A stretch of 57,580 nucleotides of DNA. Source: Ministeria vibrans ATCC 50519. Taxonomy: Eukaryota > Protista > Filasterea. Position 1 is the stretch's first letter; every line of letters begins with the position of its first letter. The position numbers were made by a program, and so were the translations under genes. Location: positions 1 to 57,580 of the forward strand of contig CALSCP010000320.1 of NCBI GenBank assembly GCA_943704425.1. The letters run 5' to 3'. Shown one piece after another: positions 10,886 through 53,100 of the stretch. The notes below the pieces were generated by a model, which was not told the origin of the DNA, searched no databases, and saw nothing but the letters and a program-made list of their open reading frames with translations.

Positions 10886-13800
10886 TTAGACATATCTCTC
10901 GTCATAAAGGGAATTGCTCGTGTCAAACAGACGCGTGCCAGGCGCACCATAGCCCGGTTCGACACTAGGTCCTGCCACATCCGACGTGAACAGCGTTCCG
11001 CGAGGCGACGGTCCAAACGATACCTCGTCGTCGTAATTGCTGCTAGACGTGCCAGTGCCGCGCATGTGGCGGCCCATCGCGGCTTCATTTGGATAAAGGC
11101 CACCCACGGTAGTCGGTTGCTCCGCGTGCAAACTAAACAGGTTACCAATTTGCATGCTCAAAGAGTCCTGCTCCCGGCGCAATCCCTCGTATGCCGCACT
11201 CCATCGGTCCGTGTTGGCCATTTGACGCTCAATCGCAATCTTGCGATGGCGCAGTCGCGTCGCCGTGTCCAAGAAATCATCCGTTTGCGGAGCGGAACCC
11301 GTCGCATCAGTCGTCACGCTGCGTCCTATACGCGATGAACGCATCTCATCGCCCGCATGCACAGAGTGGTCCTCGTACGATGACGTCGTGCCCAACGCCG
11401 TCGGCAAACCCAGACCCACCACACGAGTGGTCTGAGTCGGCGAAGACTTGCCGCGTGGCGTCTCCAGATACGGTCGATTACCGACGTCCGACATTTCAAT
11501 CCGACCGCCACTGTAGCGAAGATCGTCAAGATCGCGTCGCGATCGTCGATGACGCGTCACCAACACAGCAACAATAATCAAAATGAGCAGAAACAGAAGC
11601 GTGAGGCCCACAGCCAGTCCAACGGTCGTCGACGAGCTCGAAGACGAATTGTCCTGGCCAGTGCCTTGTGCCACCGTGTACACACCAAAGGGTGTCGATG
11701 TCGCACGGCGTCGTCGCGTACCCCCAACGCACAGCTCAGCTGAGAGACCGTCGGCCGCCACAACAATCGTACCTTCCGTAACCACCGTCCAGTCGTTGGC
11801 CGACGGCGACGACGCACGCACAAGCTGAATTGTACTGCCCTGAATCGACGACGGAATACAAAACGTCATGCACACCTCGCCAAAGAACGCCTGGGTGTAC
11901 GGCGACAGTGCAATGTAGTCACCGTGGTTGGTCGAGGTCAGGTTGGTCGTGGACACATCCGAAGTTGACAGCACCGAAATACCCAGTGTCGTCGTGCTCG
12001 CCACCGCACTACTAGTCACCTGCACCGAGTCACACGTACTCCCTGGAATGCTCACCTTGCCAGACTGTCCTGCTGTAATCGGAAGCTCAGCACCCACGGC
12101 ACAATCGCCGTCGACCGTGCTTCCGCCATCGCAGCCCTGGTAACGAATCTGGCCCGACGGACATGCGGTGCACGTCGCGCACACCGTCTGACCAACCGAT
12201 GGGTTGTAACTGCCTTCGGCGCAGGGACTGCACGGACCCGTGTTCAGCGGGCCAAAATGACCCGTCGCACACAGCGTACAGTCGTCGCCAGCGGCCGTCT
12301 CGGGACACGTGCAAGTGAAGCCCGCCACTTCGTTGGTACAGGTGCCACCATTGGCACACGGCGATGACGCACACTCATCCACATCCGTCTCGCACTGTGA
12401 GCCCGTGAAACCAGACGCGCACGTACACGTGTGGCTATTTACCGCGTCCACACAAGTCCCGCCATTAGAGCACGGCGACGACGCACACTCGTTGGTGTCT
12501 GTTGCGCAGGTGATGCCGGAGTAGCCATCGGCACAGTTGCACGTGTACGACACGACACCGTCGACGCAGGTTGCGCCATTGGAGCACGGGTTCGACGCAC
12601 AGTCGTCAACGTTCACGTCGCAGACCGAGCCTGTAAAGCCAGTGACACAGGCGCAGCTAAAACCATCGACAGCATCTGTGCACGAGCCGCCATTTCTGCA
12701 CGGCGATGAAGAGCACTCGTTGTCGTTGGTCGCGCAAAGTGTGCCCGAGAAGCCGCTCGCACATGTGCACGTGTAGCCATCGACGGCGTCGTTGCACGTC
12801 GCACCGTTGCTACACGGCGACGAATCGCACTCGTTGTCGTTGGTCACACACAAGGTGCCGGAGAATCCACTGGCGCACGTACAAGTGTACGAAACGACAC
12901 CGTCCACACACGTCGCCCCGTTGGCACACGGTGACGACGCACACTCGTCGTCGTTCACCTCGCAGTGAACGCCCGAAAATCCGGCCGCACACGTGCAGCT
13001 GTAGGTAGTCGTGAAGGTGCACGTGGCACCATTCGAGCACGGACTGCTCCCACAGGTGTCCACCAGGTCGCAGGCGGTGCCACCAAAGCCAGTGGCACAC
13101 GCGCACGTGTAGCCATCGACGGCGTCCGTGCATGACCCACCGTTGACACACGGCGTCGATGCACACTCGTCAATGTCCGTCTCGCACTGTGCACCCGTGT
13201 AACCAGCAAGACACGTGCACACAAAGAGATCAGCCTGCGTGCCCGACGAGCACACGCCACCGTTCACACAGGGCGCCGACTGGCACTCGGGAATGTCCGT
13301 CTCACACTGCACGCCGGTAAAGCCCGACACACAGGTGCATGCCCACGAATTGGGCGCATCCTCGGCGCACGTACCACCGTTGGAGCAGGGCGACGACTCA
13401 CACTCGTTGATGTCCGACTCGCATGTGACACCGGTGTAGCCCGCAGCGCAAGTACAAGAAAATTCGTCCACTTTAGAGCTCTCGACGCAAGTGCCTCCGT
13501 TGGTGCACGGACTCGACTCGCACTCATTAACATTCTCCGTACACGTCACGCCAGTGTAGCCGGGAGCACACACGCACACGTACGAAGAGGCACCATCCTC
13601 GCAGGAGGCACCATTCTGACAAGGCGACGAAACACACTCGTCAATGTTTACCTGGCACTCCTCACCCGTAAATCCCGATGGACACTGGCACACAAACAAG
13701 TTGGGTGTTGCCGCATCGGTACACACGCCCCCGTTGCTGCAGGGCGACGACTCGCACTCGTCGACATTTCCCGAGCACGACACTCCTGTAAAGCCGGCGG

Positions 13801-50100: not shown

Positions 50101-53100
50101 GGGAATGTTCACGTGTGTGTGTGCGTCGGGATGGTTTGGGTCGGCGTGTGATTCGGATGTGGACGAGTGTGCGTCGTCGCCGTGCCAGAACGGTGCTGCA
50201 TGCAGCAACGCGCTTCACCAATTTACGTGTGCGTGTCAACCAGGCCACACCGGCATGACTTGCGAGTCGGACATTGACGAGTGTGCATCGTCGCCGTGCC
50301 AGAACGGAGCGACGTGTGCTGATGCTGTCGCCGGGTTTTTGTGTGTCTGCGCTGCCGGGTACACCGGCCCACTGTGCACCGCTGACATTGATGAGTGTGC
50401 ATCGTTGCCTTGCCGCATTGGCTTTATCTGTGCCGATCAACTTGCTAGCGTGGTCTGCACCGAGGTTGTCTGCTCCGCGTCGGTTCCTGTTGACGCGACA
50501 CTCCTTGACGGCTCCACTCCTGCCGGACCTCTGGCGCTTCCTTTCACCCAAGTCCCTCTTCAGTTTGTCTGTGTGTCGGGCTACTCACTCAATGGCGTTG
50601 CTGGTGGTCCTCGTACCTTTTCGATTGCGTGCACCTCTTCAGGCGCAACCAACGCCTCTTCCTCTGTCGTGTGTGAGCCCGAACGGTGTGGGAATGTTCC
50701 CACGCAATCATTTGCCACCGCCCGAAACGACTCGAATGGCAGCGCGGTTGAGGTTGGTCATTCGGTTGCGGTGGATTGCACCGCAGGCTACACTCTTGAC
50801 GGAACTGTGGGCGGACCCGCTACCTACACCCGCACATGCTTGGGTGCAGTGTACTCGGCAACACAGTCGTGTATCCCTGTGTTCTGTGGCGTGCCACCCA
50901 ATTCGCTTGCTCACACTGAACTACTCTCGAAAGCTCTGGTCCCTTTGCGATTTGGTGGAACCGTCATGTACACGTGCAATGCGGGCTTCTCTGTTGATGG
51001 GACGCGTGAGGGCAGCGCAAGTCTTATGGCGACATGTGGCGCAGACGGTGAATTTACGACGAGTGGTGCTGCGTGTCAGGCAATGCCGTGTACGACTATT
51101 GCTGTACCAGAGTATGCCAATGTCGAGTCGCGACTGCCCGCAGTGGTGCGCACTGACGGACTGCTGACGTACACGTGCAAGACGGGCTTTACCACGGACG
51201 GGACTGAGAGTGGACCCAAATCATTTGCCTATGAGTGCAGCCCGACGGACACATTTAGTCTGGTGCTTGGCAACACGGCCGCCTGTGCCAAAGCGTGCGC
51301 CACTACCACACTGCACAGCCAAGTGGTGTCAACCAGCACGGGGGGTGTGCTTTCGTTGCCTGATGGTTCTCTCTCGATCACGGTGCCCGTCAACTACGCG
51401 AGCACCCCGCAGTTATTTGTCATTGAGACCTTTCCGCAGGCGTGTCATTCCACTCCCTCGACTGGCTCTATCTCTGCATCTACGTGGTTTCGTCTGCGTC
51501 CGTCACCGCGCACCTGGGACCAACCGCTCACGGTGACACTTGACCTTGTTCCGGGAACCTATACAAGCAGCGACTCAGTCGCCAATTTCTCAATGATGTA
51601 TGGCGCCGGAGGCGACGACTGGAGCTTTGTGACAAATCAAGTGGTGGACTTGGTCAAGGGCACGATTACGGGAGAAGTGTCACACTTTAGTATTGTGGCT
51701 GCGTTTTATGGCATGACCAATCCTCTTGGGTCAAGTGCGCCTGCTGGAAGTGGTTCATCGTCGTCGTCATCGTCGTCAGGCGGAATACTTGTGATTGCCG
51801 CTGCGGCTGCCGTTGTGATTGTCCTTATTGCTATTGTGGTTGCCATTGTGGTTGTACGACGGCGGCGCAGAAGTGCGTCGCGTCTGGACAACAAGGTTGT
51901 GTCGCGCAATGAGTCGGCGGTGAGTTTGCGTCGGGAGTTTGGTTCGATGGGCGACGCTAGCTCCAACATGAGTCGATCGTCTGTCACGAGTGGCATGTTG
52001 AACACGTCGGAGATTCAGACGTTGCAACTGGAGTTCCTTGCGAACCGCTCGCAAACACACCTCGAGGCGGAGGCGATCCAGATGGAGTCCATTGTGGAGC
52101 AGGCGTCGCGTGAGAAGGCCGATCCGGCCTATTACCATGCAGCAACGCTGGCCGAGGCGACGGACCAGCGGGTGGACCTGTCGGCGCTGCGAGAGATGTA
52201 CGGCATGGGCGCTAGTGGCGCGGGGGGCGAGTACGCAAACATGTGTGAGCGTGCCAGTGACGTGCTCTACAGTGCGCCCGAAGCGGATACGAACAAATCC
52301 CACGCAGTGTCGCTGTTGTCCAAGTCAGATGCTCCTAGTATTGTCAATGCGGCGACCAACGAGTACGACCGTGCGACCATGGCAACGGGGAGTGTGTCGC
52401 TCAGAGAAGTGGACGGTCCGCCTGAACTCGACGATGTGTACGATAGTCTACCGCTGCGCGCAAGCAACGTTGTGGTCAACGCAGAGGCGCACTACCACGA
52501 AGATGCCGTCTATGTCAACAGCGAGCTGTACGCGACAACGACGACTTCAACGACGACAATGAACAACACGAAGGGGAGCGGTCGCACAGGGGACGAGTCA
52601 GTGTATGCGACGATCGTCGAGACACACAATGACTATGAAACGTACGAGCGACGTGTGCAGAGTGAGCCTATTGAGAATTTGTATGGGACATTCCGTCGGG
52701 CTCGTCGTGAACCACGTGTTGCCAACCCGTTTCGCAAGAACACGGCGGGGGCGGAGGTGACCGGAGTGGAGACGTTTGAGCCGTACCTGAGCAGTTTGGA
52801 TGTGCCACTCGAAGTGCGGACCACTGCCGAGAACCAGTCTGAGCAGATGCTGCATCTCAAGCACAACCACTGCTTTGACCGCGACTCACTACACATCCTC
52901 GAGCAGATTGGCAGCGGCGAGTTTGGACTGGTGCTCAAGGCGACGTCAACGAACCGTGCGACGGGCAGTGCCAAGTACGTTGCCCTCAAGACTCTGCGCG
53001 ACACAGCCAATGCGAAGGAGCGCAATGACTACATTAGCGAGGCGACTCTCTTGACACGTTTTGAGCATGAGAATGTCATGGGGCTTCTAGGGGTGTGTCT

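Follow-up and report, generated by a model that had tools for sequence, protein, structure and literature searches.

The window, meaning the whole 57,580-nucleotide stretch of Ministeria vibrans DNA that was analysed, carries three adjoining receptor genes. Two giant receptors, A and B, lie on the minus strand and a receptor tyrosine kinase lies on the plus strand. Each has a juxtamembrane domain ahead of a single transmembrane (TM) helix, at the following positions.

10886..27015, minus strand: giant receptor A, about 5,300 amino acids, interrupted by four N gaps
11558..11623, minus strand: TM helix of A
11651..12100, minus strand: ZU5-like domain of A, 150 amino acids, with four Cys that are all N-side of the RRRR loop
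11684..11692, minus strand: P-F-G of A, the degenerate H-F-S counterpart that opens the last strand, with neither His nor a Ser/Thr nucleophile
11705..11716, minus strand: RRRR of A, in the scissile turn, where a convertase is predicted to cut after 11705
27773..46610, minus strand: giant receptor B, multi-exon, approximate model
29693..29764, minus strand: TM helix of B
29792..30244, minus strand: ZU5-like domain of B, 151 amino acids, 49% identical to that of A over 129 amino acids
29825..29833, minus strand: P-L-G of B, degenerate H-F-S counterpart
29846..29857, minus strand: RRRR of B
47176..54227, plus strand: receptor tyrosine kinase, one exon hidden in an N gap
51299..51724, plus strand: ZU5/MAIN-type domain of the kinase receptor, 142 amino acids
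51683..51691, plus strand: H-F-S of the kinase receptor, predicted self-cleavage at F|S
51785..51856, plus strand: TM helix of the kinase receptor

Receptor A runs from a signal peptide through about 94 EGF-like repeats with non-EGF inserts, a Cys-rich unit (ephrin-receptor-like/TNFR-like), its ZU5-like domain and its TM helix to a 221-residue tail. Receptor B begins with a signal peptide and some 80 EGF-like repeats, likewise interrupted by inserts, and continues with a Cys-rich unit, the ZU5-like domain, the TM helix and a low-complexity tail of 639 residues. In the kinase receptor, the ZU5 domain and TM helix come after a signal peptide, several kinds of repeat (Cys-rich units, EGF-like repeats numbering at least 19, and Sushi repeats), and are followed by a 338-residue juxtamembrane region with 15 Tyr and the kinase. 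Its GxGxFG, VALK and HRD motifs can be read, the exon with DFG falls inside an N gap, and PF07714 matches the first kinase exon (E 3e-16). One spliced RNA contig (run X1) covers the ZU5, the TM helix and the kinase end, indicating a single transcript; sequencing runs with small word shares were left out of this check. The gene thus combines the signal peptide, one TM helix, tyrosine-kinase domain and one transcript of a receptor tyrosine kinase (RTK).

HFS or RRRR sits about 27-30 residues N-side of the TM helix in all three receptors, and the last strand leads through a Gly/Ser linker into the membrane. No Cys lies between the cut position and the membrane in any of them. The upstream module differs (Sushi in the kinase receptor, the Cys-rich unit in A and B), as does the number of Cys in the juxtamembrane domain (one in the kinase, four in A and B). 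Other motifs are found at 51488 (FRLRP) and 51614 (DDW) in the kinase receptor, at 11914 (IALSP) and 11797 (NDW) in A and at 29938 (NDW) in B. An earlier note on this DNA put the kinase HFS at 51683-51691, just before the TM helix, which is exactly where it lies. Its sites in A and B do hold four arginines, although the 16-mers quoted for them span 11678-11725 and 29819-29866.

Judged by sequence, the kinase juxtamembrane domain belongs to the ZU5 superfamily, with HFS in the turn before the last strand. It scores 46.7 bits over positions 4-130 of a profile derived from 63 prokaryotic domains with HFS, a score reached by 0 of 1,000 shuffles, and its HFS aligns onto that of the profile. The profile was built from 120 pattern loci that yielded 65 open in-frame domains, two of which were removed for low self-scores (11 and 8 bits). 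It is itself a ZU5 profile: 39 of the 63 members match PF00791 at E<=0.01, and it retrieves the ZU5 domains of ankyrin, ZO-1 and UNC5B in the PDB (E 3e-13 to 2e-4). With the selection motifs removed, the remaining middle-only profile gives the kinase domain 20.2 bits (0 of 1,000 shuffles), to be read against 13.6 bits for the reversed domain. The His, Phe, Ser, preceding V-S and Trp spacing are all retained. The Trp-to-His distance is 21, and 26 of the 63 prokaryotic domains have 20-22; this set was chosen by HFS and is therefore uninformative on how often HFS is retained. Identity to the prokaryotic relatives is only 12-26%. L122, a prokaryotic single-pass protein located with a query-derived pattern, has the identical nine residues ITGEVSHFS before its TM helix. 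PF00791 itself does not match the kinase domain, Pfam and NCBIfam hold no named family for any of the three juxtamembrane domains, and PDB sequence searches with single domains also came back empty. By analogy with its relatives, the kinase receptor is predicted to cleave itself at His-Phe|Ser.

Against the same prokaryotic profile, the domains of A and B score 9.8 and 16.1 bits, values reached by 2 and 0 of 1,000 shuffles, respectively. A profile-profile comparison of A/B gives a probability of 76.8 and E 2e-5 over 90 columns, and the match ends before the RRRR region. The domain of A, the only one of the pair that was modelled, is all-beta (150 residues, pLDDT 58.8). Foldseek ranks ankyrin ZU5 domains 1-10, followed by the BAI3 GAIN domain and UNC5b, with E values of 6e-3 to 2e-2 that are all above 0.001 and TM scores of 0.5-0.59. 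A structure search (VIA) of 48,161 chains places AnkB ZU5 at the top with Z 8.5 (rmsd 4.3, 127 aligned), near the level usual for unrelated beta-sandwiches, since unrelated glycosidase domains reach 7.8. Comparison with GAIN-B of BAI3, CD97, CELSR1, GPR56, GPR110 and GPR126 gives Z 4.7-6.0. These moderate scores, together with the weak but agreeing profile matches, predict a ZU5/GAIN-B fold for A and B. The model superposition suggested in the earlier note is available for A only, at the moderate confidence just described; the single-sequence model of the kinase domain has pLDDT 35 and no meaningful structural match. In the ESM Atlas, which we use as a lead only, the kinase domain and A adjoin the same two prokaryotic clusters (0.91-0.94) and ZU5 clusters (0.89). 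Membership of all three domains in the ZU5/GAIN-B/MAIN fold is supported. In A and B the catalytic His and Ser/Thr are absent, with P-F-G and P-L-G at the HFS position and G-G at the N-side equivalent.

The RRRR of A occupies model residues 129-132. Alignments of this model with GPR56 (5kvm), GPR110 (8hc0) and NLRP1 (6x6c) end at model residues 127, 127 and 126, opposite residues 381, 565 and 1210. H381 and H565 are the catalytic His of GPR56 and GPR110, and the nucleophile of NLRP1 is Ser1213 (PMC3210808). The alignments thus end on the catalytic His or, for NLRP1, one residue before its position, directly ahead of RRRR. Because they stop there, RRRR appears to be carried by an insert of 10-12 residues in the scissile turn, the size indicated by a Trp-to-P(FG) distance of 33 in both A and B. 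An unguided MAFFT alignment puts the gap ahead of RRRR, not around it, and none of the 63 prokaryotic domains has a basic motif at this position. The proposal that RRRR is positionally equivalent to HFS is therefore upheld for the turn but not for the bond: RRRR lies six residues ahead of the dead P-F-G/P-L-G site.

R-x-[KR]-R occurs exactly once in each receptor, at this loop, among the ~4,960 (A) and ~4,350 (B) EGF-frame ectodomain residues scanned; B has an additional minimal RxxR, RNLR at 45926. Arg makes up about 0.8-1% of the ectodomains, a count over 4,460 residues of A and 2,400 of B gives an expectation of ~0.003 strict sites, and the presence of RRRR at the loop goes beyond chance. 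No other 14-column window is as well conserved between A and B as this loop (identical in 11 of 14 columns, compared with 45% domain-wide), and three of the four Arg codons differ. This conservation is between two paralogues, since relatives of A and B were not found outside the species. RRRR is followed by Ala and lies in a Gly-flanked coil in the model of A, on the luminal side according to the signal peptide and TM helix. As an R-x-K/R-R motif in an exposed luminal loop, RRRR is predicted to be a convertase site in both receptors.

When A is split at RRRR, the C-terminal piece is predicted to dock with a score of 0.67, versus 0.03 for the best control, although halves of one domain may pass through likeness to solved ZU5/GAIN structures. 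Contacts are the same between runs in no less than 77% of cases, with a partner pLDDT of at least 56. The docking mark is reached by 51 of 78 solved pairs and 2 of 108 mismatched pairs (39 of 65 and 2 of 126 for eukaryotes). The docked residues G139-A144 lodge between strands 62-65 and 92-96. The cut-off last strand is predicted to stay inserted in the outer piece, and no disulfide could bridge the cut, as expected from the earlier proposal that the pieces are held by this strand. A convertase cut six residues before the bond equivalent to HF|S would leave the buried Phe/Leu on the membrane piece in A and B, whereas self-cleavage would leave it on the outer piece in the kinase receptor.

The reading we favor, with a probability of about 0.55, is that each of the three receptors receives a single cut in the turn that leads into the last strand, the kinase receptor by itself and A and B by a convertase, after which the strand holds the outer piece. 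A ZU5/GAIN-B-type beta-sandwich would stand about 30 residues outside the membrane in each. If the chemistry of the relatives applies, a His-assisted Ser attack with an N-O acyl shift would cut His-Phe|Ser in the kinase receptor, and a Golgi convertase of the kexin/furin type would cut A and B after R-x-R-R at the inserted RRRR. The outer piece would then be attached only through the last strand, docked between two of its own strands. As with domains of the GAIN, MAIN and SEA types, pulling on the very long EGF stalk may strip the outer piece, making a calibrated adhesion breakpoint, and the remaining stub of about 27-30 residues could alter kinase activity or undergo further intramembrane cutting. 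A and B would have lost both catalytic residues and preserved the cut by handing it over to another enzyme; this suggests that selection keeps the cut rather than the chemistry.

Somewhat short of even odds, in our judgment, is a history in which the cuts occur without a switch in one family, the kinase and the ancestor of A and B having recruited ZU5 separately and the convertase site having arisen later in a dead domain. This history is compatible with the mechanism of the favored reading and differs from it in ancestry alone. The similarity of the A and B domains to that of the kinase, as claimed in the earlier note, holds by profiles and fold, but goes unseen when either is compared with the kinase domain by pairwise BLAST. 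The upstream modules and Cys numbers differ as described, and free trees leave the kinase apart from A and B, with poorly supported branching. However, a single clade of all three domains is not rejected (p-AU 0.908), the constrained tree outscored the quick free search, and the receptors have a common strand-Gly/Ser linker-TM layout with their genes side by side. Protein database searches with A and B returned one copy of A, one near-copy of B and no other relative; a third match (P0005) aligned in a Cys-rich repeat and was rejected as chance. The kinase domain found no relative among longer or similar-length proteins, and three weak plasmid tblastn matches, the best of them outside any matching gene, were likewise taken as chance. 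Locus scans gave 0 of 145 candidates in prokaryotic genomes and 1 of 263 in metagenomes for the kinase domain, and 0 of 296 in metagenomes for A/B.

It is unlikely that only the kinase receptor self-cleaves, with the ZU5 of A and B a dead stalk, as in ankyrin and UNC5, and RRRR an uncut basic patch that binds an acidic partner or polyanions (glycans, acidic lipids). Ankyrin ZU5 domains, which do not cleave, are indeed the closest structural matches of A, and Thr and Ser flank the arginines (T-RRRR-ATST), where O-glycans could block a convertase. Cleavage has also been lost in many ZU5 domains (PMC10084454). Nevertheless, a perfect R-x-R-R in an exposed, Gly-flanked loop with small residues after it, in the very turn that the family cuts, argues for processing, as do its standing as the only strict site per ectodomain and the best-conserved window of the pair, and the occurrence in choanoflagellates of PCSK-family proteins with furin domains (PMC2770060).

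We consider it quite improbable that a convertase cuts A and B and the pieces then separate, with constitutive shedding of the EGF stalk to form a protein of the coat or matrix. The pieces have no linking disulfide and many proproteins are released by a convertase cut without staying joined, but the strand that follows the cut is predicted to be one of the inner strands of the sandwich and to remain docked. Moreover, MAIN, GAIN, FIIND and furin-cut SEA domains remain associated (10.64898/2026.05.12.724683, PMC3210808, PMC6954182). Slighter still is the chance that all three remain uncut in the living cell, with the kinase HFS a structural relic and the position of RRRR coincidental: not all motif-bearing domains cleave ('nearly all' tested MAIN domains did; 10.64898/2026.05.12.724683), some GAIN domains do not (PMC10607210) and the kinase domain has diverged far from its prokaryotic relatives, but it retains the His, Phe and Ser, the V-S ahead of them and the Trp spacing, and shares the nine residues ITGEVSHFS with L122.

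Among known systems, MAIN domains are cut at F|S in HFS and their products remain associated (bioRxiv 10.64898/2026.05.12.724683, Brogan and Rudner). In them, too, a large adhesive ectodomain has a GAIN-B-like sandwich with HFS at its base, and force release has been proposed for them. However, MAIN proteins are bacterial or archaeal, anchored to the wall or S-layer and said to be without transmembrane signalling, whereas the kinase receptor is a eukaryotic single-pass tyrosine kinase; the text of the preprint contains neither 'furin' nor 'ZU5'. GAIN/GPS domains of adhesion GPCRs and polycystins likewise have their cut site close outside the membrane, in the turn that precedes the last strand. 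Unlike these, the present receptors have no helical subdomain A and no 7TM, and the GPS Cys/Trp pattern is not seen; the model of A is all-beta, with a Cys-rich unit upstream and one TM helix followed by a basic stop. With a single TM helix, no tethered-agonist pocket is possible in the three receptors. The ZU5 of PIDD1/UNC5CL, the FIIND of NLRP1/CARD8 and Nup98 share the ZU5 fold, the cut at HF|S or SF|S and fragments that stay associated (PMC3210808), but PIDD1/UNC5CL and NLRP1/CARD8 are cytoplasmic and continue into UPA and a death-fold, whereas the domains here are extracellular and continue into a TM helix.

In logic, A and B resemble Notch, combining an EGF array with a juxtamembrane domain that bears a convertase site. 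Their juxtamembrane fold is ZU5-like, not a SEA-like HD, and in the terminal frames of both giant receptors Pfam recognizes EGF families and detects no LNR, NOD or ankyrin. The earlier note had set Notch against PIDD as precedents; a closer one is the SEA fold, ferredoxin-like and unrelated to ZU5, in which one loop is self-cut in MUC1, GPR110 and GPR116 and furin-cut in Notch2 and GPR126, the fragments being held non-covalently (PMC6954182). Choanoflagellate Sema-FN1 has SEA breakpoints as well (PMC8011033). A swap between self-cleavage and convertase cleavage has thus been described before for an unrelated fold. For ZU5/GAIN, our literature searches, mostly of non-subscription papers whose supplements may list such proteins, found no ZU5-furin case and no RTK with a self-cleaving ZU5/GAIN-type domain. 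Insulin receptor, MET and Sevenless are two-chain receptor kinases made from one precursor by convertase cleavage, mostly with disulfide linkage, and we know of no convertase-processed RTK that self-cleaves via a ZU5/GAIN domain. Liao et al. in 2014 reportedly described an extracellular ZU5-like domain in CILP. CILP1/2, which derive from a secreted precursor processed by furin (PMC7251193), are a possible precedent for a furin cut inside a ZU5 fold, in a secreted protein and not a receptor.

A broader reading, which we hold only tentatively and regard as doubtful, is that, in a unicellular relative of animals, an RTK switched through self-cutting and the mechanical loss of its ectodomain and two Notch-like giants whose ZU5/GAIN-type domain exchanged autocatalysis for a convertase site make this the second fold, after SEA, with interchangeable routes to the cut, and an instance of force-gated shedding independent of Notch and adhesion GPCRs. 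Adhesion GPCRs, polycystins, mucins and Notch sense force through juxtamembrane domains that are pre-cut and held non-covalently. If the cuts occur, the locus provides a natural matched set in which the fold and the turn are shared, the chemistries are two, and the buried Phe goes to opposite pieces. It could then tell whether the cut alone matters or whether the rupture force is set by chemistry and register, and would bear on the gating of single-pass kinases by ectodomain pull-off before animals arose.

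Two giant EGF-repeat receptors of Ministeria vibrans (A and B) and an adjoining receptor tyrosine kinase each carry a ZU5-like domain next to the membrane. The occurrence of HFS in the kinase's domain (51683..51691, plus strand) and of RRRR in those of A (11705..11716, minus) and B (29846..29857, minus) is real, and every motif quoted in the earlier note was found in the sequence. Spliceosomal introns and spliced contigs mark the window as eukaryotic, and the combination of a receptor tyrosine kinase with large EGF arrays suggests a holozoan, probably a unicellular one.

Receptor genes of the locus
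27015 to 10886, minus strand: giant receptor A, single-pass, adjoining B
46610 to 27773, minus strand: giant receptor B, single-pass, between A and the kinase
47176 to 54227, plus strand: receptor tyrosine kinase, single-pass, adjoining B

Pattern counts gave 94, 85 and 19 EGF-like repeats in the A, B and kinase regions, and a separate count in the B frames alone gave 77. Near-identical EGF blocks recur around N gaps within and between the three genes (18421-26444, 38350-41648 and 48900-50460), which means that mis-assembly, or homogenisation through recent conversion, may have altered the repeat counts. Elsewhere in the window are a protein whose EGF repeats precede receptor L domains (3-1964, plus; PF01030, E 2e-12), as in insulin and EGF receptor ectodomains, and ordinary neighbours encoding a Hid1/Dymeclin family protein (6957-8312, minus) and an alpha-galactosidase (9262-9750, plus).

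A contig of sequencing run X1, taken by guess as RNA and spliced where the DNA run X13 is unspliced, joins 50289-53131, 53193-53336 and 53899-54224 of the kinase gene, and therefore the ZU5 domain, transmembrane segment and kinase belong to one transcript. For A, contigs of X1 and a further run, X5, both terminate at 10781, beyond the stop codon, a weak hint that this gene is transcribed. The kinase ectodomain is likely alternatively spliced, since run X2 yields a contig that includes an exon for a Cys-rich unit (47411-47497, plus), whereas the X1 contig skips it. B and the kinase are arranged head to head (46610-47176), and because the B start codon (46610, minus) lies close to the start of the spliced kinase contig (46665, plus), one short promoter may serve both.

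Searches of Pfam, NCBIfam and PDB sequences returned no family name for any of the three domains. We gathered a prokaryotic ZU5-like set with a motif pattern; 65 of 120 loci contained an open in-frame domain and 63 were kept. This set is ZU5, as PF00791 is matched by 39 of the 63 and its profile retrieves ankyrin, ZO-1 and UNC5B. The kinase's domain scores 46.7 bits across the full length of the profile, its HFS aligned with that of the set, and 20.2 bits when the selecting motifs are removed (0/1000 shuffles; reversed sequence 13.6). The corresponding values are 16.1 and 14.7 bits for B (0/1000 shuffles each) and 9.8 and 8.0 bits for A (2/1000 and 1/1000). A six-frame scan of the window (757 open frames) ranked the kinase frame first and the B frame second, and profile-profile comparison of A plus B with the 63 domains gave a probability of 76.8 (E 2e-5).

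An AlphaFold2 model of the A domain was made from a two-sequence alignment (pLDDT 58.8). Its first ten Foldseek matches are ankyrin ZU5 domains, followed by BAI3 GAIN, UNC5b and CD97; no match reaches E<=0.001. Among 48,161 chains the AnkB ZU5 domain came first (Z 8.5 over 127 aligned residues, rmsd 4.3), but unrelated glycosidase domains came close, with a Z of 7.8. Thus the similarity of the A and B domains to that of the kinase, claimed earlier, holds through profile matches and the ZU5/GAIN fold of the A model, although direct pairwise comparison gives nothing. The superposition proposed to check it covers the A model, which is ZU5-like at moderate scores, on ZU5/GAIN chains.

The basic motif is far from chance in both receptors. 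R-x-[KR]-R is expected ∼0.003 times per receptor on the residues counted, and exactly one is observed in each, among ∼4,960 (A) and ∼4,350 (B) residues scanned, at the loop predicted to lie in the scissile turn preceding the last strand. Over 129 residues the two domains share 49% identity, and the RRRR loop is their best-conserved 14-column window (11 of 14 identical) while three of the four Arg codons differ, indicating selection on the protein. A database near-copy of B (P0004), whose ZU5 domain and RRRR are identical by eye and whose tail has at least three substitutions, is an allele or the B of another isolate. Two minimal RxxR motifs (RLSR and RHAR) directly follow the kinase signal peptide (47236-47280, plus), possibly delimiting a convertase-removed propeptide. 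Loops inserted in EGF-like repeats of the next gene, GRRAP and GRRRVP (56483 and 57091, plus), are closed by disulfides and may contain additional convertase sites.

Alignments of the A model to GPR56, GPR110 and NLRP1 chains stop at model residues 127, 127 and 126, opposite chain residues 381, 565 and 1210; RRRR is model residues 129-132. The GPS histidines are given as H381 in GPR56 and H565 in GPR110 (PMC13123842, PMC9046087), and the NLRP1 nucleophile as Ser1213 (PMC3210808). Counted from a conserved Trp, the His follows at a distance of 20-22 in 26 members of the prokaryotic set of 63, and the kinase value is 21. For A and B the same measure gives 23 to Gly127 and 33 to the Pro of P-F-G (A) or P-L-G (B). 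The post-loop sequence P-F-G-V-Y-T-V resembles H-F-S-x-Y/F-A/V-V/A. These observations agree on a 10-12 residue loop inserted in the scissile turn, with His and Ser lost. However, one unguided alignment set the gap earlier than the RRRR loop, so this register is supported, not proven. The two sites, earlier said to be equivalent, are thus predicted to share a turn but not a bond: the predicted cut precedes the HF|S-equivalent bond by six residues, and would shift a buried Phe or Leu onto the membrane piece.

All four Cys of the A and B domains lie upstream of the RRRR loop, with none from loop to membrane, and none lies between HFS and the membrane in the kinase. When A is split at RRRR, the prediction places the C-terminal piece between strands 62-65 and 92-96, with a docking score of 0.67 versus 0.03 for the best control, runs agreeing on at least 77% of contacts and a partner pLDDT of at least 56. 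Of 78 solved pairs 51 attained the docking mark, compared with 2 of 108 mismatched ones (39/65 and 2/126 for eukaryotes). Because two halves of the same domain can score well through resemblance to structures already solved, docking backs the fold and the register more than it does actual binding.

A junction held in this manner would serve as a breakpoint. GAIN domains are reported to come off at a few piconewtons (PMC10607210), and choanoflagellate semaphorins have been interpreted along the same lines (PMC8011033). Cutting would leave membrane stubs of 27-30 residues, and the three tails hold 9, 11 and 15 Tyr. We regard it as possible, if somewhat doubtful, that release signals, through activation of the kinase or cleavage of the stubs within the membrane, rather than only protecting. 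The A and B tails, otherwise unrelated, share a 67-residue segment at 34% identity (E 2e-6; ∼11075-11275 and 29108-29299, minus), which may be a module for binding a partner, and both end in an acidic Tyr motif. Their EGF arrays are broken by Cys-free inserts of 130-150 residues and about three types (15641-18100, 19228-23906 and 33939-45938, minus), of which one matches DUF4082 and another opens with a conserved basic motif (16036, 34331, 45938); these are candidate ligand- or glycan-binding domains.

Trees group A with B and, when unconstrained, leave the kinase apart from them; a single clade of all three is not rejected (p-AU 0.908). No A/B relatives were found beyond M. vibrans in the protein databases and metagenomes searched. 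Given the kinase's position and this restriction to one species, the proposed switch between autocatalytic and convertase cleavage is safe only as the statement that an HFS-type fold now bears a convertase site.

HFS domains of the prokaryotic MAIN type, which are GAIN-B-like and self-cleaving, are extracellular and membrane-proximal, as in the kinase. One prokaryotic-type single-pass protein (locus L122, 2-1219, plus) is laid out like the kinase, with an HFS ZU5/MAIN domain directly before the membrane and a tail in the cytoplasm. CILP is reported to hold a ZU5-like domain. It is described as furin-processed (PMC7251193), and may be a precedent for a convertase-cut ZU5-type protein. ZU5, GPS and Nup98 are presented as homologues in PMC3482391 and PMC10084454. 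Our literature search turned up no publication describing a receptor tyrosine kinase with a ZU5 domain, or a convertase site in a ZU5 scissile turn, and the main text of PMC12716839 does not contain the term 'ZU5'. Alternation of cuts is known from SEA, where self-cut and furin cut are described as alternating in one loop (PMC6954182); the ZU5-bearing receptor tyrosine kinase and the convertase site in a ZU5 scissile turn are apparently new.
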